IMG/VR virus record: IMGVR_UViG_3300045988_176129
Location: 24,700 to 88,699 of that record
Source: a virus
Strand: one strand, 5' to 3'
Length of the DNA: 64,000 bases
The translations under genes were made by a program, and so were the position numbers. Positions 2,619-49,749 of this stretch are shown here, one piece after another. Every line of letters begins with the position of its first letter. Within the stretch, counting starts at the first letter, position 1. The notes under the pieces were generated by a model, which saw only the letters and a program-made list of their open reading frames with translations, did not search any database and had not been told where the DNA came from.

Positions 2619-3251
2619 TTATCTACGAACAGAGCCGTCATTATAAAAACTTATAGCATTATCGCCCTTGTTAGAGTCTTTATCTAATTCCATATAAGCT
2701 TTCAATCTATCTATATCATACTGTACATCTACATAATCAAAAGATTCCTGTATCCTATCAATTGCCGCAATACCTTCTTTTACTAACTTCAATTGCTGTT
2801 GTTTAATTATTCTATCTCTTGCGGAAGTCAGCGTTTTTCGCATTTCTTTTGATGTAGCTGCTGCTATTGCATTATTAATTATATCTATATTAATTTCAAG
2901 ATTATTATTCTTTTTATCTTTAATATAGTGACTTCTATATATTAGAATTATAACACCTATGACTATTAAATCAATAATCCAACCATACATATAAATATTA
3001 ATAAATTTCATTATCCTTATCCCTATTACCGCGAAACAGATTTCTCCTCCTGCAATCATTATATCAGTCATAATCCATCCAATTGAGAAGCCTCCAATCT
3101 CTTTATCGTCAAAGAAATCAATTTGCATAATTTTACATATATCACGGCTATATTTAGATTCCAAAAATTTATTGTATATTATTGTAATAATACTTAAATA
3201 AATGGGAATAGCGTATATCCCGTGAAAAAATACAAGAGCTTTAGCAACCAT
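2619..3251 (-). CDS. membrane protein
   Basis: Several hydrophobic segments followed by a C-terminal coiled-coil-like region. Confidence 0.5.
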   Translation of the reverse strand: MVAKALVFFHGIYAIPIYLSIITIIYNKFLESKYSRDICKIMQIDFFDDKEIGGFSIGWIMTDIMIAGGEICFAVIGIRIMKFINIYMYGWIIDLIVIGVIILIYRSHYIKDKKNNNLEINIDIINNAIAAATSKEMRKTLTSARDRIIKQQQLKLVKEGIAAIDRIQESFDYVDVQYDIDRLKAYMELDKDSNKGDNAISFYNDGSVRR

Positions 3252-13505: not shown

Positions 13506-13638
13506 TTGAAAAAATAAAAAAATTATATTATAATATATATACAAAGTTAAGAAAGGGATATAAAAAATAAATAAAAATTTTCTTGACAAAAATGTTAAAA
13601 TATGTTATAATAAAAAAGAAATAAGATACAAAACATTT

Positions 13639-13713
13639 TGGGATGTGGTCTAGTTTGGCTAAGACGCAGGATTTGGGTTCCTGAAATCGAGAGTTCGAGT
13701 CTCTCCATTCCAA
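13639..13713 (+). tRNA. tRNA-Pro(TGG)
   Basis: Hand-folded cloverleaf: 7-bp acceptor, D-stem gtct/agac, anticodon loop tttgggt, T-arm gagag-ttcgagt-ctctc. Confidence 0.8.
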
Positions 13714-13843
13714 TTTTCATAAATTAAATATAATAATTGATATTATAAAAAATTTATGATATAATAATTATATAAGATGAAGGAATGTGAAACATTCCCA
13801 TGTAAGTTCCCTTTGCGGTTTTCTTCTTTATCTTATATATTAT

Positions 13844-13981
13844 TCCCTAGTAGCTCAGTTGGTAGAGTGTCTGACTGTGCGGAAATAGTATAAGCAGTAC
13901 GTCTGTAGCCCAGAAGATTTGAGTTCAAATCTCAATTTCCGATTAATCAGAATGTCGTAGGTTCGAGTCCTACCTGGGGAG
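13844..13981 (+). tRNA. tRNA-like gene with GTG-type anticodon loop interrupted by a ~65-72-nt insertion
   Basis: Canonical acceptor, D-arm and T-arm; the anticodon-stem halves (tctga / tcaga) are separated by 72 nt. Confidence 0.4.
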
Positions 13982-14120
13982 CTAGGTTAAGTTATTCATA
14001 GACTCGCCGATTGCAGAAAGTAGGAATGTTGTTATTTAAAATGGTAACACAGTCGCCGAAAGGACTGTCTGTCAGACTCCTTGACGGAGAATAGGAGTAG
14101 AGTTATAAGTGAAGATGATT

Positions 14121-14145
14121 GGAGGTTCGAATCCTTCCCCGCCGA
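14121..14145 (+). other. orphan canonical T-arm plus 3' acceptor-like element (unresolved tRNA or tRNA-like RNA end)
   Basis: ggagg-ttcgaat-ccttc followed by cccgccg; no 5' partner found within 100 nt. Confidence 0.3.
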
Positions 14146-14312
14146 AAAGTGGTGGGCGCGAAAGGAGTGCTAATCGAAGAACTTATTTTAGTTGAAGTAC
14201 AAAGTGTGTTGCAGCATATGGAGTAAATACTAAAGTAACTCGACAAGATTTACTGCAATAAGTCTTGATAGCTTAGTCATCTAATTGGAAGGATGCCACG
14301 GTATGTGGTCAC

Positions 14313-14337
14313 AGAGGTTCGATTCCTCTCTAAGATT
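14313..14337 (+). other. orphan canonical T-arm element (unresolved tRNA-like)
   Basis: agagg-ttcgatt-cctct followed by ctaagat; a possible 5' partner attttag lies 145 nt upstream. Confidence 0.3.
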
Positions 14338-14548
14338 TAGGCTCGGACTTTAACCCCGAGGGTAATAATTAGGGTTATTGCGTACAGAGAGATTGCCGAA
14401 CATTACGTATCCTCACTCTACCTTAACGAGATAAGGTGTAAAGATGTCTATGAAATGTCGTTTGAAAGAGATTTAGAGAGTTCACGAAGTAGCTCACCTT
14501 GTATCTTCAAGTTATGCTTCTTGGGGATATAGACAAAAAGCATTTTAA

Positions 14549-14620
14549 TCCGATTTAGTACAATGGCTAGTACCCTGGCTTTGTAACCCAGTGATAAGTG
14601 TTCGATTCACTTAATCGGAA
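14549..14620 (+). tRNA. tRNA-Thr(TGT)
   Basis: Acceptor tccgatt/aatcgga, D gtac/gtac, anticodon loop tttgtaa, T aagtg-ttcgatt-cactt. Confidence 0.75.
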
Positions 14621-14744
14621 CTTAAAAATCATGCCATAGCGTAAGCAAAAGGTAGTTAGCTCAAAAGTAATAGATATAGGTCAGCCTTTTTACCTGTCTA
14701 TAGGATAGAGTGTTAGTTTTCTAGGTATGTTCTAACGAATAAAT

Positions 14745-14816
14745 GCCGATGTAGTATAATGGTTAGTACACCTGTCTTCCAAACAGGATATGCGAGTTCG
14801 ATTCTCGTCATCGGCT
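14745..14816 (+). tRNA. tRNA-Gly(TCC)
   Basis: Acceptor gccgatg/catcggc, anticodon loop cttccaa, T gcgag-ttcgatt-ctcgt. Confidence 0.8.
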
Positions 14817-14828
14817 TTAAAATAATTT

Positions 14829-14900
14829 GGGGTTATAACTCAATGGAAGAGTAATTGCTTTGCAAGCAATAGGTTGAGAGTTCGAGTCTCTCTGGCTCCA
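14829..14900 (+). tRNA. tRNA-Ala(TGC)
   Basis: Anticodon loop tttgcaa, T gagag-ttcgagt-ctctc, acceptor with G-U pairs. Confidence 0.75.
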
Positions 14901-14903
14901 CCT

Positions 14904-14976
14904 GCGAAAATAGTTCAGTTGGTAGAGCACACGTCTGATACGCGTGAAGTCGATGGTTCAAATCCATCTTTTCGCA
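14904..14976 (+). tRNA. tRNA-Ile(GAT)
   Basis: D-loop agttggtagagc, anticodon loop ctgatac, T gatgg-ttcaaat-ccatc. Confidence 0.8.
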
Positions 14977-14982
14977 TTATAT

Positions 14983-15055
14983 ACTGGTTTAGTTTAATGG
15001 ATAAAATATTTAGCTACGAACTAAAAGAGTATAGGTTCAATTCCTATAACCAGTA
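14983..15055 (+). tRNA. tRNA-Arg(ACG)
   Basis: Acceptor actggtt/aaccagt, anticodon loop ctacgaa, T atagg-ttcaatt-cctat. Confidence 0.75.
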
Positions 15056-15135
15056 TTAAATGTATTTATAATGGTAACTGGCAAACTTATTTGACTTAGA
15101 ATCAAATATTTGAGAGTTTAAATTTTTTAGACGCA

Positions 15136-15164
15136 TTGACAAAAATAAAAATTTTTGTTATAAT
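15136..15164 (+). promoter_or_regulatory. sigma70-type promoter (TTGACA-17-TGnTATAAT) driving a non-coding region
   Basis: ttgaca ... tgttataat. Confidence 0.6.
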
Positions 15165-15300
15165 ATTATTAAGGAAGTTGCGGAAAGAAAACTGTTTAAC
15201 CTTATCAAAAATAAACAAAACTGCTGACCTTATTTCAGTGGAGAATAGGGTATAAAGGAAAATATAAGAGAGAACCCGTGCAGCAACCGGTACGTAAAAT
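15165..15300 (+). ncRNA. candidate small non-coding RNA (no ORF; flanked by promoters)
   Basis: Lies between two promoters; locally GC-richer; contains paired segments gcaaccggtacg...ggttgcccc. Confidence 0.25.
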
Positions 15301-15439
15301 AATGGTTGCCCCTTTAATTTGATATTTTTAAAAATTTTTGATATAATATATATATCAAATAAAAAAGAAAAATACTGAGTTGTCATTCTTCTAAGTATTT
15401 GGATAGTAATAACAAAAGAATGTTCGCTGGATTGGTTAG

Positions 15440-15490
15440 TTGGACTTGAGAATTTTCTCAATTGTGGTTCGATTCCACTTTGACCACTTA
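15440..15490 (+). other. degenerate tRNA-like element (acceptor + anticodon-like arm + T-arm, no D-arm)
   Basis: tggttag ... ttgag-aattttc-ctcaa ... gtgg-ttcgatt-ccac-tttgacca. Confidence 0.25.
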
Positions 15491-15504
15491 TCATAAAACA
15501 ATAT

Positions 15505-15533
15505 TTGACAAAAATAAAATTTTATGATATAAT
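15505..15533 (+). promoter_or_regulatory. sigma70-type promoter upstream of the large non-coding element
   Basis: ttgaca-17-tgatataat. Confidence 0.6.
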
Positions 15534-15634
15534 AATTATATAAGAAATCTTGTCAATGGATTAATTAATAGCATAAGCGCAGAGATGGGTTAGTTATAAT
15601 AGTGAAGAAAGCTAATCAGTTCGCACTTTGATAA

Positions 15635-16291
15635 TTGAATACTTTAGTCAAAATATAATGTAATAACTCAGTGCAGAATGGTGAATTCAGCCATGCTGAG
15701 AAATCTTGAGAAACTCCAGTAACAACCGAAGCAAGGATACTTGCGGATATTGCTGTTTTCTTAATTGTGAAATTAAGAAAAGAAAGGATAGGCTCCAACG
15801 AGTAGAGAGATTGTGCTGTGGGGATTACGGTTTATAGCGTAGGACGTGTCTCGGTGATGGAATAGAGGCGAAGGTTAATAGCTTTCGCTGAATCAAAGTG
15901 AGGGTTTAGCTGGTGACTGTATCAAACCTTTGAAATGCCAATAAATCATTTTGTCGTGATGTTTTAGAAATAGAACTATAAGAGATGCAGATGACCTGAA
16001 AGTAGCCTAAGACAAAATTAAAGAAGAACAATTTTAATTCAAGTTGTATGTAAATGGAAATTACATAAAAGATTGAAAATATTGCTGAAAGTAATGGTGA
16101 AATCTAGGGGTAGTCATTCCCCTCTAAGTTAAGTGAGTTTCGACTCATGGGGTAAAGAAGTACAGACTAGCTATCTGGTTGCTATTTATAGCATTTAACT
16201 CAGCCTTTATCTCCTTAGTTGCGTAATAATAAACAAGTAATACATAGTAAGAGGAAGCTCTATTATAATATATTTTGACTAAAGTATTCAA
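15635..16291 (+). ncRNA. ~650-nt non-coding element bounded by perfect 23-bp inverted repeats (candidate large structured RNA, or MITE-like insertion)
   Basis: ttgaatactttagtcaaaatata at 15635-15657 is the exact reverse complement of 16269-16291; no ORF over 60 aa inside; higher GC than flanks; sits between a promoter and tRNA-Glu. Confidence 0.45.
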
Positions 16292-16300
16292 GATGGCGAT

Positions 16301-16372
16301 GGCGGTATCGTCTAGTGGTTAGGACAGCGGCTTTTCACGCCGCAAACCCGAGTTCAAATCTCGGTACCGTCA
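16301..16372 (+). tRNA. tRNA-Glu(TTC)
   Basis: Acceptor ggcggta/taccgtc, anticodon stem gcggc/gccgc, loop ttttcac, T ccgag-ttcaaat-ctcgg. Confidence 0.8.
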
Positions 16373-16562
16373 CTTTTAAGACTCATCATCTTAAAATGGG
16401 AAGAAATTGCTCCCAATGTAAAGTAATTTGACTTGATATTTCAAGAGGTAAATATCCCTGTATACTAGGAGACGGTATAACAGTTATTTGATGGTTTCTC
16501 TGTTAAAAGAAAAGAATTATTAGGGTTGCAACCTGGTGATGACAAATAGCTATAGTTAATAT

Positions 16563-16635
16563 CGCGAATTGGACAGTATCGGTAGCTGCGTAGCCTCATA
16601 AGCTAATCAGAGGGGTTCGACTCCCCTATTCGCAA
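16563..16635 (+). tRNA. tRNA-Met(CAT), initiator-like (C1-A72 mismatch)
   Basis: Acceptor cgcgaat / attcgca with a C:A mismatch at the top; anticodon loop ctcataa; T agggg-ttcgact-cccct; irregular D-arm. Confidence 0.6.
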
Positions 16636-17035
16636 GCAAAAGTACAATGATTTCATTTTTCCTTTCAGATATGTGTTTGTTGTATTGTACTTTTATATTT
16701 GGTGGTTGGTTTTTTCCAAGAGTTTACCAACTAAAAAACAAAACTTGTTCATATATAGTTCTTTTCATAATAGGCGGAGGAGCCTTTCTTCCGCCTTTAA
16801 TTCTGACTATTATTGAATTTACATATAAATTTCAAAGAAGGAGATTGATATTATGAAAGATAGAGAGTGGGGCAATTAAGTAGGCTAGGAAAAGTAAAAC
16901 ATCAGGTGGGTTTATAATTCCATAGACCTACTTGCCGCAAGTTTAATATTCATTAAGAGATATGAAATATTACTTGAAAAAATAAAAAAATTATAATATA
17001 ATATATGTATAAGATAAAGAAAGGAAATAAGAATT

Positions 17036-17158
17036 ATGACAAATGAAATCAAACTTGCAACATTAAAGAACAGATTGGCTACTATTGAAGCAAAGGGAAA
17101 GAGTACTCCTGGAGTTTTAAGAAAGTTAAGAAGACAGATTCGCTCTCTTGAGCGTTAA
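17036..17158 (+). CDS. 40-aa basic peptide (MTNEIKLATLKNRLATIEAKGKST...)
   Basis: Promoter and RBS aaaggaaat upstream; not in the supplied track because under 60 aa. Confidence 0.4.
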   Translation: MTNEIKLATLKNRLATIEAKGKSTPGVLRKLRRQIRSLER

Positions 17159-17169
17159 TCTGTAAAAAA

Positions 17170-17243
17170 GGGAAATTAGCTTAGTTGGTTAAAGCAGGCG
17201 GCTCATAACCGCAAGAGCCTAGGTTCGAATCCTAGATTTCCCA
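17170..17243 (+). tRNA. tRNA-Met(CAT) (elongator or Ile-lysidine type)
   Basis: Acceptor gggaaat/atttccc, anticodon loop ctcataa, T ctagg-ttcgaat-cctag. Confidence 0.75.
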
Positions 17244-17247
17244 CTAA

Positions 17248-17320
17248 GGATCGTAAGCTAACTTAGTAGAAGCACAAGACTGAAAATCTTGGGGACTTGG
17301 AGCGTAACCAAGACGATCCA
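17248..17320 (+). tRNA. tRNA-Phe(GAA)-like with non-canonical T-loop
   Basis: Perfect acceptor ggatcgt/acgatcc; anticodon stem caaga/tcttg, loop ctgaaaa; T-arm cttgg-agcgtaa-ccaag lacks the TTC. Confidence 0.45.
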
Positions 17321-17486
17321 CTTGGCGGGTAATGCATTTGCCCCACCACCTAGTGCCTAAGCTGGGGAACTTTGGGAAAGATTCTCAATAGTAAAGGATT
17401 AAGACTTTGCAAATTATTAGATGAAATGGGCGATAATCATAAACAGGAACAATTACTTCGCCTCCTGTGGTAATCAAATATTATAT

Positions 17487-17570
17487 GGATGGGTATGTCT
17501 AGTGGCGATGACAGCGGTCTGTAAAACCGTGACGTAAGATACACCGTAGGTTCGACTCCTACCCCATCCA
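17487..17570 (+). tRNA. tRNA-Tyr(GTA), long variable arm
   Basis: Acceptor ggatggg/cccatcc, anticodon loop ctgtaaa, variable arm about 14 nt, T gtagg-ttcgact-cctac. Confidence 0.75.
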
Positions 17571-17768
17571 CTTAGATAAGATAAAAACAGGCGGGAGACG
17601 CGGCTCGCTAGTGAAAAGTCTTTAAGAATGACAAATAAACAAAACATTCAAGCTATATTTCTCTTTGAGACAAGGTACCTCTGAGTTCGCGCTATTGAGG
17701 TTTAAAGCACCGTGCGGTTCCGGAAAAACATAGCAACCTTGGGAGAAATATATCATCTTATCTATTAA

Positions 17769-17850
17769 GTCGAGATGGCGAAATTGGTATACGCGGTAGA
17801 CTCAAACTCTACTCTAGAAATAGTTGTGGGTTCAACTCTCACTCTCGACA
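17769..17850 (+). tRNA. tRNA-Leu(CAA)
   Basis: Acceptor gtcgaga/tctcgac, 3-bp D-stem, anticodon loop ctcaaac, long variable arm, T gtggg-ttcaact-ctcac. Confidence 0.7.
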
Positions 17851-17856
17851 TTATAT

Positions 17857-17939
17857 GCGCCCGTGGTGAAATTGGTAAACACATGAGATTTAAGCTCTCA
17901 CGACTTCGGGTCTTGCGGGTTCGAGTCCCGCTGGGCGCA
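17857..17939 (+). tRNA. tRNA-Leu(TAA)
   Basis: Acceptor gcgcccg/tgggcgc, anticodon loop tttaagc, long variable arm, T gcggg-ttcgagt-cccgc. Confidence 0.75.
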
Positions 17940-18169
17940 CTAAAATTGAGTAGAAAGTTTGGAATCTTTCTAATAAATCTCAACCTGGGTGCTCAATTTT
18001 ATATATAATCTTATGCGCAAAAAGATTAAAGAACAATGGTAAGTTTCCATTACAGAGTATTGCTTTTATATAGAATAATGGATTGGATAAAAGCAATAGA
18101 TGAAATTACAAGAGGTTGATTCTAAACCTTATGGAGCTTGAAATACAGGTACACATAAAAAGAATCATC

Positions 18170-18240
18170 GCGGGTGTAGCTTAATGGGTAGAGCACTTCA
18201 ATGTTAATGGAGGGATGAGGTTCGAATCCTCCGCCCGATC
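18170..18240 (+). tRNA. tRNA-Asn(GTT)-like with irregular acceptor stem
   Basis: D gctt-aatgggta-gagc, anticodon stem cttca/tggag, loop atgttaa, T (t)gagg-ttcgaat-cctcc; the acceptor pairs only with a bulge. Confidence 0.45.
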
Positions 18241-18315
18241 TCTTTATTGATTTTTTATGAATTTTATATTATAATATATATATAAGATATAAGATATAAA
18301 AAGGAGATAAAATAT

Positions 18316-18633
18316 ATGTTTTTTAACATTTGGATAGATGATATGCGGCAACCGCCCCATAAAGATAACTTAGTAGTATTCCGAAATGCAGAATCTGCAA
18401 TAGAATGGTTTGAAAATGAAGAAGAGATAACCTCTAATGACTGCTTTTGTTTATATTTAGACCATGATTTAGGAGAAGGAATGTCTGGATACGACTTCTG
18501 TAAATGGTTTATAGAATGGAACTATAACAAATGTTATGATGCTACTTTTGTATTATTGACAGCTAATCCTGTTGGTAGAAATAATATGCGGCAGCTAATG
18601 ACTCATTATGGCTATGAAGAAAAATATCATTAA
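18316..18633 (+). CDS. receiver (REC)-like domain protein, hypothetical
   Basis: Promoter and RBS aaaaaggagat; DD pair (IWIDDMR), LYLDHDLGEG and T...K positions fit a CheY-like fold. Confidence 0.5.
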   Translation: MFFNIWIDDMRQPPHKDNLVVFRNAESAIEWFENEEEITSNDCFCLYLDHDLGEGMSGYDFCKWFIEWNYNKCYDATFVLLTANPVGRNNMRQLMTHYGYEEKYH

Positions 18634-18772
18634 TGACATTTATTAAAAAATATTATATAATATATATAGACTCACATAGTTTAAGTTAGGAAAACAACCG
18701 AATCCCAGGTAAAAGACCAATATTAAGTTATTGAAGATTTTCAAGCGCAAATCTTGATGTGGGTTCTACTTA

Positions 18773-18857
18773 GCGCGTGTCGCCTAGTGGCTAGGGCAAC
18801 GGACTTTTAATCCGTCGATGTTCAGCATCATCGCAGGTTCAAATCCTGTCACGCGCA
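18773..18857 (+). tRNA. tRNA-Lys(TTT) with an unusual 17-nt variable arm
   Basis: Acceptor gcgcgtg/cacgcgc, D gcct/gggc, anticodon stem acgga/tccgt, loop cttttaa; extra hairpin gatg-ttcagca-catc before T-arm gcagg-ttcaaat-cctgt. Confidence 0.6.
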
Positions 18858-18928
18858 TTGACATATTATAAAAAATATGTTAAAATATTTATATAATGAT
18901 AAGAAAGAAGAAGTCATTATAAAATTTT

Positions 18929-19002
18929 GGCTCTGAGGTGTAACTGGTTTGCATAATACCCTGTCACGGTATAGGTAACGGGTTCAAGTCCCGTCTGAGT
19001 CG
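18929..19002 (+). tRNA. tRNA-Asp(GTC)
   Basis: Anticodon stem atacc/ggtat, loop ctgtcac, T acggg-ttcaagt-cccgt; one U:U in the acceptor. Confidence 0.7.
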
Positions 19003-19115
19003 CTTCACTTAGTAGATTGAAGTCGCGAATATAATATCTACTGAAGAAGATAATAAGTCTATCCGCGGAGATTGTGATAGAAACTGTTATTTTGGCAGAT
19101 AAGTGGACTGCCGTT

Positions 19116-19188
19116 TGTCCTAGGGGTCAGGTTGGTTCTGATGCAGGTCTGCAAAACCTGAGAAGTGAGTTCAAATCTCACCAAGGAC
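19116..19188 (+). tRNA. tRNA-Cys(GCA)
   Basis: Anticodon stem caggt/acctg, loop ctgcaaa, T gtgag-ttcaaat-ctcac, discriminator U. Confidence 0.65.
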
Positions 19189-19451
19189 TTAACAATAGTT
19201 CATTTGTATTGTTGAGGAGTAACGACCCTTGACCTAGCTGTGGTAGCTAGAGGAACGAAAAAATAACCATATTAATATTTTATAAGTAAATTTAATAATA
19301 AGCGAAAAACCCGGTGACATGATTTCCTGCTTCTGTAAGCTGAAGGGAAACAAAAAGATGTGAATTACAGATATGCTTATTATAAAAATGCAGTTTGTGT
19401 TCTAATTACGTTCTAATTATAGGGTTATTGAAAGTAAAATATTAATATTAT

Positions 19452-19539
19452 GCCGTCTTACTCAAGTTTGGTTGAAGAGGTCGCATTGCTAACGCGATAG
19501 GCTGTAACAGGTGCGGAGGTTCAAATCCTCCAGACGGCG
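19452..19539 (+). tRNA. tRNA-Ser(GCT)
   Basis: Perfect acceptor gccgtct/agacggc, 3-bp D-stem, loop ttgctaa, long variable arm, T ggagg-ttcaaat-cctcc, discriminator G. Confidence 0.7.
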
Positions 19540-19578
19540 CTTATACTTATAAGAAATTGTTTGTAATTTCATAATAAT

Positions 19579-19652
19579 ATCTCGGTAAAGATAATTGGAA
19601 ATCGCTTGGTCTCCAAAACCATAGTACCTGGGTTCGATTCCTAGCTGAGATG
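19579..19652 (+). tRNA. tRNA-Trp(CCA)
   Basis: Acceptor atctcgg/ctgagat, anticodon loop ctccaaa, T ctggg-ttcgatt-cctag; weak D-stem. Confidence 0.55.
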
Positions 19653-19917
19653 TTTTCTTCCTTTGTAATTCATAGAGAAGATATGATGATCGCCTAACTG
19701 GATAAAGGTTATAATACCAGTACATAAAGGGTAATCCAAGTAACCGAAAATGGGAGATAACCTGTGTGACGTTTATTGTTTACGTCTTAAAATAATATGA
19801 CGAGTTTTATAGTCTTTTAGCGATGACAAGCAAAGAGTGCGGCAGCTGACTTTTATAGCAGTTAGCCTAGAGTGGTGCGTTGGCGGCTTGAGCCAATAGT
19901 CAAAATCAAGCATATAT

Positions 19918-19989
19918 TGGGTTATCGCCAAATGGTAAGGCAGCGGGTTTTGATCCCGCGATTTGCAGGTTCGAGTCCTGCTAGCCCAG
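19918..19989 (+). tRNA. tRNA-Gln(TTG)
   Basis: Acceptor tgggtta/tagccca, anticodon stem gcggg/cccgc, loop ttttgat, T gcagg-ttcgagt-cctgc. Confidence 0.75.
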
Positions 19990-20000
19990 TTTATAAATAT

Positions 20001-20085
20001 GCCGAGGTACCTTAGTGGGGAGGAGGCGTTGTCTTGAAAACAATCGTCCTTCACGGGACTGGGAGTTCGAATCTCTCCCTCGGCG
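20001..20085 (+). tRNA. tRNA-Ser(TGA)
   Basis: Acceptor gccgagg/cctcggc, loop cttgaaa, long variable arm, T gggag-ttcgaat-ctctc. Confidence 0.75.
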
Positions 20086-20087
20086 CT

Positions 20088-20160
20088 GTGACATTAGTTC
20101 AGTTGGTAGAACATTGGATTGTGGTTCCAAATGTCGTGAGTTCAAGTCTCACATGTCACC
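20088..20160 (+). tRNA. tRNA-His(GTG) without an encoded G-1
   Basis: Acceptor gtgacat/atgtcac, D gttc-agttggta-gaac, loop ttgtggt, T gtgag-ttcaagt-ctcac, discriminator C; base -1 is T. Confidence 0.75.
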
Positions 20161-20272
20161 TTTTTATCACATATATTAGCTAAGGACGTAAAAATAAAAA
20201 GCAAAAAGTTAAAGAATAGATGAAGAAATATAATGCTGATGTAGAGTTTAATGGAACAGGAGAAATTATAAA

Positions 20273-21238
20273 ATGAGAAAAATAACAGAAACACATACAG
20301 GAAAGATTGTAACTGATACAGATTTAACTCTTGAATATTTATATGTTGGTGATTATGGAAAAGAGAATAATATTAAGGCATCATTTCTTGGATATGATAA
20401 AAGAATTGATAAGGTAGAGCATAAACCTGTAGATATTACTGATAAGCTTGTAGTGACTGTATCTTCACAAAAAGGTTGTCCTATGAATTGCAATTTCTGT
20501 GACTGTCCTAAACTTGGATTTAAAGGTAATGCAACTTTGCCAGAGTTGATTACGGAAATTATGTCAGGTGTTGCTTTATCTGGAATTAAGCATGGACAAA
20601 GATTGAATGTACATTATGCAAGAATGGGTGAACCAACATTTAATCCAAATGTTATTACATCGGCAAAGTTTATTGCGCAAATGTTAATGAGTGAAAATTC
20701 AGATGTAACTTTTGATACATACCATCCTGTAGTGTCTACTATGATGCCAAAATCAAATAAAAACCTTAAAGAGTTTTTACATAAATGGATAACAACTGGA
20801 TTTGTATATGGCGGAGAGGATGGTTTTGGATTACAGTTTTCTATAAATACTCTTAATGAGAATGATAGAAATGAAATGTTCAGAAACAGGTCTTTATCAT
20901 TGCAGGAAATTAGTAATATTATCAAAGAACTTCCTTATCCGAAGAAGAGAAAATATACATTAAATTTTGCGGTTACTTCCAAGAGTAATCTTAATGTAGA
21001 CCTTATGAACAAATATTTTGATAAGAAGAAATGCATTGTTAAAATGACGCCAATTCATGAGACTGTTGAAGCTGTTGATGAAGGATATGAAATTGTGCAT
21101 GATTTTGATGTATATGAGCAGTTTGAGCAGCCACTTGTAAATGATGGATGGGATGTAATTGTCTTTGTTCCCTCAAAAGAGGAAGATGAGGACAGAATTA
21201 CATGTGGAAATTCGTTAATTGCATTAGGAAACAAGTAA
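20273..21238 (+). CDS. radical SAM enzyme, RlmN/Cfr-like (candidate rRNA/tRNA adenosine C2 methyltransferase)
   Basis: VSSQKGCPMNCNFCDC has the CxxxCxxC cluster inside a vSSQxGC...C.FC context typical of RlmN; a C-terminal ITCGNS may hold the second catalytic Cys. Confidence 0.55.
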   Translation: MRKITETHTGKIVTDTDLTLEYLYVGDYGKENNIKASFLGYDKRIDKVEHKPVDITDKLVVTVSSQKGCPMNCNFCDCPKLGFKGNATLPELITEIMSGVALSGIKHGQRLNVHYARMGEPTFNPNVITSAKFIAQMLMSENSDVTFDTYHPVVSTMMPKSNKNLKEFLHKWITTGFVYGGEDGFGLQFSINTLNENDRNEMFRNRSLSLQEISNIIKELPYPKKRKYTLNFAVTSKSNLNVDLMNKYFDKKKCIVKMTPIHETVEAVDEGYEIVHDFDVYEQFEQPLVNDGWDVIVFVPSKEEDEDRITCGNSLIALGNK

Positions 21239-21276
21239 CAAGAATCGCTCATTTCTTATGAAATTTTGGAGGTAAT

Positions 21277-21681
21277 ATGAAGAAAAGAATTAAGGAAATA
21301 TGTGAAAAATTAGATGGAGATATTTATGGGAAGGGTTGTAATTTCTTAGAAAACGAAGATGATGATGAAATACCTACATTTTACAGTAGAGATGATTGTC
21401 ATTCTATATCTTTTAGAGAACTATTATTATGGTACTTGCCAAGGTTGGGAAGTTGGCAAGATGGGCCAGATTGTAATGATTGTGATTGTAAGGATTGTGA
21501 TGATTTTAGGCATATAAAAAACTGTAGAAAGATGGTTTTGGATGAGCAGATTAAGAAAAGACACTATGAGTTATTTCTTGAACTTGTTGACATTTATGCT
21601 TATTACACGCAGCAAGATCATATAAAGTATAGACAATTAAAAGAAAAGTGTAAAAGTGTTTTAAGAGAAATTATGGAGTAA
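21277..21681 (+). CDS. Cys-rich hypothetical protein
   Basis: GPDCNDCDCKDCDD cluster; RBS ggaggt. Confidence 0.5.
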   Translation: MKKRIKEICEKLDGDIYGKGCNFLENEDDDEIPTFYSRDDCHSISFRELLLWYLPRLGSWQDGPDCNDCDCKDCDDFRHIKNCRKMVLDEQIKKRHYELFLELVDIYAYYTQQDHIKYRQLKEKCKSVLREIME

Positions 21682-47527: not shown

Positions 47528-48303
47528 TGTCAATATTTATTACTGGGGATACCCATGGTGATTTCCGCAGATTCTCAAGTCAGTATTTCTCAGAAGGAAA
47601 AAATCTAAATAGAAATGATTATGTTATTATATGTGGAGATTTTGGCGGAATTTGGGATATAGATAAACACAATCTTTCTGAAAAATATTGGCTTGATTGG
47701 TTAAATGCAAAACCTTGGACTACTCTTTTTGTAGATGGAAACCATGAAAATTTTACTCGTTTAAATAGTTTCCCGCAAGTAGAATTTTGCGGAGGTCTTA
47801 CTCATCAGATACGTCCGCATATTTATCATTTAATGCGAGGAGAAATTTTTGAAATAGATAATTGTACTATTCTTGCTTTTGGCGGTGCGCCATCACATGA
47901 CATCCAGGATGGTATAATTGATCCTTCAATAGATAAGGATTGGAAGGATACAGCTAGGTTATGGAGAAAGCAACATAAACTCTTTAGAATTAAAGGTATC
48001 TCTTGGTGGGAAGAAGAGGTGCCTACTGCCGCAGATTTTGACAATGCAAAGAAAAATTTAGCTTTATATAATAATAAAGTTGATTTTATTGTTACACACG
48101 AAGCACCCGCTTCTGCTTTTTATGAAATGGCTTTATGGGGGAAAGTGCCACCATCACAATATTTGCCAAGCGAAACGTCAAAACAAATTCAAGATTTAAT
48201 ATCTAATGTGGAATATAAACAGCATTATTTTGGTCATCATCATCTTGATAAAAGATTTAATTTTTCTGAATGTTTATATACATCAATTCAGCAAATACAT
48301 TAA
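47527..48303 (+). CDS. calcineurin-like metallophosphoesterase
   Basis: GDTHGD ... GDFGG ... GNHE ... H motifs. Confidence 0.7.
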   Translation: MSIFITGDTHGDFRRFSSQYFSEGKNLNRNDYVIICGDFGGIWDIDKHNLSEKYWLDWLNAKPWTTLFVDGNHENFTRLNSFPQVEFCGGLTHQIRPHIYHLMRGEIFEIDNCTILAFGGAPSHDIQDGIIDPSIDKDWKDTARLWRKQHKLFRIKGISWWEEEVPTAADFDNAKKNLALYNNKVDFIVTHEAPASAFYEMALWGKVPPSQYLPSETSKQIQDLISNVEYKQHYFGHHHLDKRFNFSECLYTSIQQIH

Positions 48304-48307
48304 TTAA

Positions 48308-48340
48308 AAGAGGATTTAATAATCCTCTTTTTGTTTTTTA
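48308..48340 (+). terminator. Rho-independent terminator
   Basis: agaggatt-taat-aatcctct followed by ttttgtttttt. Confidence 0.6.
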
Positions 48341-48392
48341 TAAAAAAATATGATATAATATTTATAGAAAGTTATGAAAGAGGTGTATAAAA

Positions 48393-48695
48393 ATGAGTAT
48401 AAGCATTAGTGAGATGTACTGCACTGAATGTGGGAAAAGAGGAATAGATATTCCTAGAAAAGTAGGAAAAGAACGAGAAGCTGGACACTTAAAATCATTA
48501 TATTGTATAAACTGTAAAAAAATAACTAATCATGCAGAGGTTCGTCCTTTTGGAAAGTATAATAAAGAGGATTTTTTAATTGAATTTGAAAACGGAAATT
48601 TTAAAAACGGAGAAAGAATTGTAAAGTCATATAAACAATTTATATCTTCAATTGTAAATAACACTGAGAAAATAGAAAAGCAAAAGGAGGAATAA
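48393..48695 (+). CDS. zinc-ribbon protein
   Basis: CTECGK ... CINCKK. Confidence 0.5.
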   Translation: MSISISEMYCTECGKRGIDIPRKVGKEREAGHLKSLYCINCKKITNHAEVRPFGKYNKEDFLIEFENGNFKNGERIVKSYKQFISSIVNNTEKIEKQKEE

Positions 48696-48698
48696 AAA

Positions 48699-49193
48699 AT
48701 GGCAAATATTATTATGATGTGCGGTATTCCTGGAAGTGGAAAGTCTACTTATGTAGAAAAACATAGAGGAGAACATGACCTTTATATATCAAGAGATTTA
48801 ATAAGATTTTCAATGCTTGAAGAAGGACAGGAATATTTTGGAAAAGAAAAGCTTGTTTTTGATACTTTTGTTAAGACAATAAATCAGGCTTTAAAAGTTA
48901 ATAGTATAGAAAATATATGGGTAGATGCAACTCATATCAATCCGCCATCAAGATATAAGATTCTTAGAAGAATATCCAAGCAGTATAAGTTCCTTAAAAT
49001 TATAGTTATGGATATTCCTCTCTCAGTATGTATAGATAGAAATAATTATAGAGAGGGGCGGGCAAGGGTTCCTGAGTCCGCAATTAATGGCATGTATAAA
49101 AATTTTAGAATGCCTACTTTTGAAGAAGGTTATAATGAAATCATAACAGTAGATATGTATGGTAATGAAATAAGGAGGAATAGAAATGTCTAA
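48699..49193 (+). CDS. polynucleotide 5'-kinase (T4 Pnk kinase-domain-like, P-loop)
   Basis: MMCGIPGSGKST Walker A; RD..R, DATHINPPSR and R..RVPE.AINGMYK parallel the T4 PNK kinase domain. Confidence 0.7.
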   Translation: MANIIMMCGIPGSGKSTYVEKHRGEHDLYISRDLIRFSMLEEGQEYFGKEKLVFDTFVKTINQALKVNSIENIWVDATHINPPSRYKILRRISKQYKFLKIIVMDIPLSVCIDRNNYREGRARVPESAINGMYKNFRMPTFEEGYNEIITVDMYGNEIRRNRNV

Positions 49194-49749
49194 TATTTGG
49201 ATAACTAGCGATACTCATCTGGGGCATGATCGAGATTTTATCTGGAAGCCTCGAGGTTTTAATTCAGTTGATGAAATGAATAATGAAATAGTTAAGAGAT
49301 GGAATGAAAAGGTTCAGCCAGAAGATATAGTATATCATTTGGGGGATGTTATGCTTGGAGATAATGAAGTTGGAGAAAATCTTCTTAAGCAGCTTAATGG
49401 AAATATAAGGTTTATAATTGGTAATCATGATACCAATAGTAGACTAAGAATATATGAAAAGTATGGTGAAATTCTTGGCTATGCAACAGTAATAAAGTAT
49501 AAAAAGAAAATGTTATATCTTAGTCATTATCCAACTTTAACAGGAAATTTTGATGATGTAATAAAAGGCGGAACTCTAAACTTAAACTTATGCGGTCATT
49601 TACATACTTTTAATAAATTTTTAGATATGGATAAAGGAGCTATTTATCATTGTGAAATGGATGCACATAACTGTTATCCCATTTTACTTGATGATGTAAT
49701 AACAGATATAAAAAATTATTGTATAAATGAAAGAGGTAATAAAGAATGA
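49186..49749 (+). CDS. metallophosphoesterase (candidate 2',3'-phosphatase of the RNA-repair module)
   Basis: SDTHLGHD ... LGDV ... GNHD ... GHLH. Confidence 0.7.
   Translation: MSNIWITSDTHLGHDRDFIWKPRGFNSVDEMNNEIVKRWNEKVQPEDIVYHLGDVMLGDNEVGENLLKQLNGNIRFIIGNHDTNSRLRIYEKYGEILGYATVIKYKKKMLYLSHYPTLTGNFDDVIKGGTLNLNLCGHLHTFNKFLDMDKGAIYHCEMDAHNCYPILLDDVITDIKNYCINERGNKE

Follow-up and report, generated by a model that had tools for sequence, protein, structure and literature searches.

The tRNA-His of the gut phage studied here is encoded without the extra 5' guanosine (G-1) that bacterial tRNA-His genes normally encode, and the same genome carries what is, judged by its domains and motifs, an intact gene for a bacterial-type Thg1-like protein (TLP). 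A functional link between them is possible in this phage, but they do not form a dedicated pair. Absent G-1 is common among phage tRNA-His genes, TLP and G-1-less tRNA-His dissociate in both directions among phages, and the TLP most probably serves in general to repair or mature tRNA 5' ends. By the window we mean the whole stretch of DNA that was analysed, 64,000 nucleotides of phage DNA with 31% GC. The tRNA gene and the position in question are as follows.

20088..20160, plus strand: tRNA-His(GUG), called by ARAGORN as His(gtg), matching the full Rfam tRNA model and numbered from the T-loop
20087, plus strand: position -1 of the tRNA-His, a T in the sequence and in each of six independent assemblies

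The boundaries, for which the preliminary description had proposed tRNA prediction and a covariance model, came out identically in both, as RF00005 matched 20088-20160 on the plus strand over the full model at 68.4 bits (gathering score 29) with the coordinates given by ARAGORN. Direct reading with the T-loop-anchored numbering gave an acceptor stem GTGACAT/ATGTCAC with 7/7 pairs, including G1-C72, along with U8, the anticodon GTG and the T-loop TTCAAGT. The discriminator is C73 at 20160, as in canonical bacterial tRNA-His, and it is followed by ttttt, hence the gene does not encode CCA. The T at 20087 is unable to pair with C73, and the encoded G-1:C73 pair of the canonical bacterial form, which makes an 8-bp acceptor stem, is absent. 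The stem, the discriminator C and the T before +1 were thus as first described. The tRNA-His and its flanks were identical in six independent human-gut metagenome assemblies of the same phage, with scaffolds including some of 137 and 140 kb.

An alternative fold which would place a G at -1 was examined and rejected. If G20088 is taken as -1 and paired with C20159, the fold needs a 4-bp T-stem, brings in a T.C mismatch at 7:66 and loses U8, and it is also against the Rfam alignment, which places 20088-20160 on the full model. The alphaproteobacteria are given as the known bacterial exception to the G-1 rule in a tRNA identity review (PMC9976931). Their tRNA-His, with A73, U72 and a G-1-independent HisRS, shares the missing encoded G-1 with the window tRNA-His, whereas the latter has C73 and G1:C72, and its likely hosts are Lachnospiraceae (see below).

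The tRNA-His is the final member of a tRNA array.

13638..20160, plus strand: tRNA array with an embedded ROOL RNA, with 21 ARAGORN tRNAs and 2 further Rfam tRNA matches
20001..20085, plus strand: tRNA-Ser(UGA), directly upstream of the tRNA-His, found by ARAGORN and Rfam

The spacer between tRNA-Ser(UGA) and tRNA-His is 2 nt (CT), and the same Ser(UGA)-His unit occurs with a 1-nt spacer in two related gut-phage arrays (L248 and L359). Among the 20 array tRNAs that could be parsed, 15 have T at -1 and none encodes CCA, so the tRNA-His is formatted like any RNase P substrate of the array. The array, 6.6 kb in length, is absent from the closest relatives at the syntenic site; DNA homology with these (L097 and L099, 94% identity) begins only at 20247, right after the tRNA-His. 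Likewise, the gene next to the tRNA-His on its downstream side encodes a radical-SAM protein, and the array is missing upstream of all 80 relatives of this gene. In the array of a near-identical phage (L178, 2650-9888) an additional tRNA-Leu(tag) follows tRNA-Arg, tRNA-Glu is absent and an ORF with an HNH domain is included. A megablast of 19400-21400 against INPHARED gave no close relatives with the same tRNA-His, and an exact scan of IMG/VR with the 17-nt anticodon arm returned unrelated phages only, all of the G-1/C73 type.

The array holds several unusual RNAs. A full-length ROOL RNA (RF03087, 255.9 bits, model positions 1-574) lies at 15643-16280 on the plus strand between tRNA-Arg and tRNA-Glu. 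A 138-nt Rfam tRNA match at 13844-13981 (plus strand, 54 bits) was missed by default ARAGORN, while the intron mode placed a 65-nt insert in its anticodon loop; the insert contains a T-arm-like hairpin, and the whole could be an interrupted or nested tRNA. The 85-nt tRNA-Lys(UUU) at 18773-18857 (plus strand) has a long, stem-forming variable arm, which is type II-like and unusual for a lysine tRNA. Finally, a weak Rfam tRNA match of 29.9 bits at 19580-19651 (plus strand) has no ARAGORN call, and by eye it shows a CCA (Trp) anticodon loop, a good T-arm and a poor D-arm.

The second component is a protein gene about 24 kb further downstream.

44117..44977, plus strand: Thg1-like protein of the bacterial template-dependent type, 286 aa, identified by Pfam Thg1 and PDB 4KGK

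This ORF had been described as a Thg1-family enzyme, and the database searches bear this out. The N-terminal catalytic domain matched Pfam Thg1 (PF04446) with an E-value of 6e-30 and 104.2 bits (cut-off 29.2), and the closest solved structure was the Bacillus thuringiensis TLP (BtTLP, 4KGK; E 2e-61), with both halves aligned. For the C-terminal domain, Pfam Thg1C scored 23.4 bits, below the cut-off of 26.3, while the C-terminal half of BtTLP gave a 98.7-bit alignment with residues 156-283. D34 in RIDG, S78-D79-E80 in SDE and the stretch W176-R-Q-x-D-A-x-x-N184 are invariant across seven phage TLPs, and the catalytic metal-binding carboxylates D34, D79 and E80 align with those of BtTLP. The window TLP thus shares the catalytic carboxylates and the WRQxDAxRNS motif with bacterial TLPs (4KGK/4KGM), but differs from BtTLP in being phage-encoded and in a variable insertion of about 35 aa at residues ~121-155. 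The eukaryotic HINNLYN motif is not in the window TLP, which has WRQLDASRNSIQM at the site of yeast Thg1 WRYVDTHINNLYN.

From these features we expect the chemistry of the TLP to be template-dependent 3'-5' addition, for example of G opposite C73. Templated addition has been described for archaeal and bacterial members of the Thg1 family. BtTLP-type enzymes reportedly add G-1 opposite C73 on G-1-less tRNA-His in vitro, and they are also said to repair 5'-truncated tRNAs. On A73, templated addition by a TLP would yield U, not G.

Downstream of the TLP there are several further candidate RNA-processing genes.

45984..47219, plus strand: RNA ligase with an N-terminal OB and a nucleotidyltransferase domain (PF21189, E 1e-19; PF09414, E 3e-17)
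47527..48303, plus strand: metallophosphoesterase, a candidate RNA end-healing phosphatase (Pfam Metallophos, E 1e-06)
48699..49193, plus strand: P-loop kinase (AAA_33), a candidate polynucleotide 5'-kinase (Pfam AAA_33, E 3e-14)
49186..49749, plus strand: second metallophosphoesterase (Metallophos_2, Pfam E 6e-10)

The RNA ligase gene lies 1 kb downstream of the TLP gene, and 45984-49749 holds the RNA_ligase domain, the AAA_33 kinase and the two metallophosphoesterases in a row. By its domain set this region looks like a split RNA healing-and-sealing toolkit, as kinase, phosphoesterase and RNA ligase domains are those of T4 Pnkp + Rnl1 and of bacterial Pnkp/Hen1. It differs from the classical systems in that the ORFs are separate, the ligase carries an OB domain at its N-terminus, a TLP is added and the arrangement is not conserved in relatives. 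A conserved TLP/RNA-ligase operon was considered and dismissed, since the adjacency occurs in just 2 of 61 loci of the family.

No aminoacyl-tRNA synthetase domain, and hence no phage HisRS, was detected in any ORF of at least 400 aa within the window. Elsewhere in the window the NAD-dependent DNA ligase is seemingly split; one part, at 57393-58502, has the adenylation and OB domains, and the other, at 59064-59882 (plus strand), has HhH and BRCT. An ORF of 193 aa lies between the two parts (58505-59086), and an ORF for a GIY-YIG endonuclease is found at 60723-61697. The protein of the ORF at 38802-41255 (plus strand) is 817 aa long and contains a major-vault-protein shoulder / SPFH (Band 7) domain; it is 56% identical in two phages of a related lineage, L076 and L188.

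To place the phage and its TLP we consider the relatives of the enzyme. We found 402 relatives in IMG/VR, mostly on gut contigs of 100-185 kb, and 59 loci in GTDB genomes. The isolate genomes with relatives at 50-70% identity are of Roseburia, Robinsoniella, Lacrimispora (within the chromosome), Eubacterium plexicaudatum, Blautia and other Lachnospiraceae. Such relatives in Lachnospiraceae genomes place the likely hosts outside the alphaproteobacterial exception to the G-1 rule, and we suggest that the hosts of the window phage are likely Lachnospiraceae (Clostridia), not alphaproteobacteria. As the TLP is found family-wide while the array is missing in relatives, the TLP is an old gene of the family, and the array has been inserted as an accessory element.

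In the TLP clade of the window, a tRNA-His within 10 kb on either side of the TLP was found only in L076 and L188 among ~200 loci (in 0 of the 59 GTDB loci, and in these two only among ~140 IMG/VR TLP loci). These two form a third lineage, in which the tRNA-His is of the U-1/A73 type with G1-C72 and lies 4-7 kb from the TLP. In a second lineage, a tRNA-His subtype GTGACTA...TAGTCAC-C73 was present in 50 contigs, of which the 48 with a usable parse all have T at -1, and this tRNA-His follows 1 nt after tRNA-Ser(UGA). One of its members (L462) carries a TLP 48% identical to that of the window, about 9.4 kb upstream of the GTGACTA-type tRNA-His. A scan with this TLP gave 45 loci, and at least 32 of the 50 contigs with the GTGACTA tRNA-His were among them, as found by manual comparison of the contig names in the tRNA-His and TLP lists. 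Of the 45 loci, 21 have the tRNA-His within 10 kb of the TLP, in each case as T-1/C73. The combination of a TLP with a U-1/C73 tRNA-His thus recurs in a second lineage of the family, in about 45-50 contigs. One further TLP contig (L341) has its TLP next to a canonical G-1:C73 tRNA-His. Across the related lineages the acceptor stem varies by paired changes (GTGACAT/ATGTCAC, GTGACTA/TAGTCAC and GTGACCG/CGGTCAC).

As a baseline we ran a pattern scan of IMG/VR, which gave 84 unique tRNA-His genes, and sorted these by the bases at -1 and 73. The G-1/C73 type accounted for 54, T-1/C73 for 11 (two of them low-confidence parses), A73 for 16 and other combinations for 3; hence 30 of the 84, about one third, have no G-1/C73 pair. 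It should be noted that many of the 16 A73 genes look like those of alphaproteobacteria, having G1:U72 and a CCA in the gene, and form a separate class. Where C73 occurs without G-1, the base at -1 is T in 11 of 11 genes, including the two low-confidence parses.

The presence of a TLP was compared with the -1/73 type through lineage-level examples. The T4-like Enterobacter phage EcL8g has a U-1/C73 tRNA-His at 152719-152791 on the minus strand, and tblastn with three diverse TLP queries detected no TLP in its whole genome (best E 0.04, against 1e-63 or better for the positive control). Besides EcL8g, T-1/C73 tRNA-His genes were found in three T4-like phages and one Vequintavirinae phage of enterobacteria, and no other T4-like groups were among the matches listed by the TLP tblastn. 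The tRNA-His of these T4-like (Straboviridae) and Vequintavirinae phages has the same format as that of the window, with T-1, a G1-U2-G3 start and a CAC-C end, at up to 84% identity, and at least EcL8g goes without a TLP.

In the Bacillus phages a TLP may be present or absent beside another kind of tRNA-His. The TLP-positive phage PHZU0001 (L373, 43006-43079) has a tRNA-His with C1:G72 and A73 and without G-1, and tRNA-His genes of this type were detected in the TLP-positive phages Bcp1, BM15 and Bc431v3 by BLAST and in QCM8 by direct reading. Five phages that are missing from the complete list of 46 Bacillus records with a TLP also have this type: Tsamsa, Chewbecca and Deep Blue by direct reading, JBP901 and BCP8-2 by BLAST (96-99% identity). 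In the phages read directly, with or without a TLP (PHZU0001, QCM8, Tsamsa, Chewbecca and Deep Blue), the shared format is C1:G72, A73 and C or A at -1, hence without a G-1:C73 pair, and it is conserved, with covariation in the stem. The TLP-bearing phages with an A73 tRNA-His include Fnu1, L076 and the Bacillus Bastillevirinae. Fusobacterium phage Fnu1 (NC_055035) holds the closest cultured relative of the TLP, at 47% identity, and its tRNA-His has G at -1, A73 and an encoded CCA. Five tRNA genes at 2635-3137 of Fnu1 (Pro, Ser, Tyr, Cys and His) are missing from the RefSeq annotation, and a gene for an RNA ligase/metallophosphoesterase fusion lies 1 kb from the tRNA genes. In the 88-kb Staphylococcus phage PMBT8 (MK893987) a TLP is present and no tRNA gene was detected, so its TLP must act on host RNAs. 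Conversely, since G-1-less tRNA-His genes are kept in phages without a TLP, a TLP is unnecessary for such tRNAs to persist.

Based on the above we suggest the following scheme, all steps of which we infer for this phage. The tRNA-His gene would be a functional member of a widespread phage class in which U stands at -1, the -1:73 pair is missing and CCA is not encoded. Host RNase P would cut the polycistronic array transcript at +1, leaving a 5'-monophosphate on G1 and no G-1, and this cut would be favoured by U-1 and by the lack of a -1:73 pair. The 3' trailer would then be trimmed after C73 and CCA added by the host enzyme. Finally, the phage TLP would activate (adenylylate) the 5' phosphate and add one G opposite the template C73, restoring the G-1:C73 pair as used by a canonical non-alphaproteobacterial HisRS. 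When a TLP and a 5'-monophosphate C73 tRNA-His lacking G-1 are together in a cell, some G-1 addition is expected. In the identity review, C73 is reported to covary with a G-1-dependent HisRS (PMC9976931). The scheme resembles the eukaryotic Thg1 route, in which G-1 is likewise not encoded and is put on by a Thg1-family enzyme after RNase P cleavage at +1. It differs in that eukaryotic Thg1, with its HINNLYN motif, adds a non-templated G opposite A73, whereas the window TLP lacks the motif and addition opposite C73 is predicted to be templated by Watson-Crick pairing.

The preliminary description went further and proposed a self-contained tRNA-His maturation pathway of the phage. The proposal is supported in part, by the C73 template, the intact TLP, the likely Lachnospiraceae hosts, the recurrence of the U-1/C73 pairing in a second lineage and the U-1/A73 tRNA-His beside a TLP in a third. 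A dedicated, self-contained pathway finds no support, as the TLP is family-wide, the array is accessory, PMBT8 has a TLP without tRNA genes, EcL8g and the Bacillus phages Tsamsa, Chewbecca and Deep Blue keep a G-1-less tRNA-His without a TLP, and the TLP-bearing L341 has a canonical tRNA-His. With the TLP found throughout the family and the array accessory, G-1 supply cannot be the reason for the TLP in these phages. Also counting against a link are the A73 tRNA-His in several TLP-bearing phages and the TLP/RNA-ligase neighbourhood in only 2 of 61 loci. The reading we put forward, tentatively and as close to an even call, is that a TLP for general tRNA 5'-end repair or maturation also supplies G-1 to the window tRNA-His as one of its uses. 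A stronger version seems unlikely to us; it would have a large, conserved class of phage tRNA-His deliberately omit G-1 in favour of U, with the TLP of the Lachnospiraceae phages adding G-1 opposite C73, and with phages lacking a TLP (T4-like, Tsamsa-like) needing another route of histidylation or use in hosts with a G-1-dependent HisRS.

We lean against a complete lack of functional connection, though it is a real possibility. The TLP would then serve purely for tRNA repair or counter-defence on damaged host or phage tRNAs, and the tRNA-His would be used without G-1. The double dissociation (PMBT8 on the one side, and EcL8g, Tsamsa-like and Deep Blue phages on the other) fits this well, as do the family-wide TLP beside an accessory array and the RNA-repair-type genes (RNA ligase, kinase and phosphoesterases) flanking the TLP. 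It is also established biochemistry that BtTLP prefers 5'-truncated tRNAs over tRNA-His lacking G-1. However, with both molecules in one cell the in vitro chemistry leads one to expect templated G addition, and some of it would be hard to avoid; moreover, a whole clade of about 45 contigs has a U-1/C73 tRNA-His within about 10 kb of the TLP. The absence of a link also leaves unexplained how a canonical HisRS would efficiently charge a C73 tRNA without G-1.

That charging might instead rely on the encoded U-1, if RNase P cuts one position upstream and the extra nucleotide with its phosphate suffices for HisRS with no TLP involved. The constancy of T at -1 would suit this, in 11 of 11 baseline C73 genes without G-1 (two low-confidence parses), in 48 of 48 of the GTGACTA clade and in four T4-like phages and one Vequintavirinae phage, and so would the contacts of HisRS to position -1, described as largely non-specific in the review (PMC9976931). 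Nevertheless we find it improbable that U-1 is retained, since U is the commonest -1 base of the other array tRNAs (15/20) and its conservation is then explained by ordinary cleavage at +1. Further, the shift of RNase P cleavage on tRNA-His precursors is known to depend on the -1:73 pair, and U-1 cannot form this pair with C73. Less probable again, and in our opinion very improbable, is that the tRNA-His does not serve translation at all and is a decaying copy, a decoy or some other non-canonical tRNA-like RNA. A major HisRS identity element is missing, and odd members of the array exist (the interrupted tRNA at 13844-13981 and the long-arm tRNA-Lys), but the high covariance-model score and perfect cloverleaf, the identity in six assemblies and the fold kept by paired stem changes across related lineages all speak against it.

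A literature search on phage TLP function or G-1-less phage tRNA-His gave no relevant study, even though 'tRNA-His guanylyltransferase' is annotated in many phage genomes, and a term search of the tRNA identity review (PMC9976931) gave no mention of phages. The host tRNA-His of B. thuringiensis encodes G-1, whereas the window phage genome encodes a G-1-less tRNA-His beside its TLP. We know of no natural G-1-less substrate for the TLP in B. thuringiensis. The physiological substrate of bacterial-type TLPs is, to our knowledge, an open question, because G-1 is already encoded in the bacteria that have them.

A phage with both a C73 G-1-less tRNA-His and a TLP makes this question directly testable. 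Should the link fail, the finding would amount to two ordinary and separately common phage features. If the TLP does add G-1 here, a bacterial-type TLP would for the first time have a natural substrate for G-1 addition in this tRNA-His. The wider implication is perhaps the weightier: many phage tRNA-His genes are without the main HisRS identity element, including those of TLP-less phages with E. coli-type or Bacillus hosts, which raises the question how, or whether, such tRNAs are charged.
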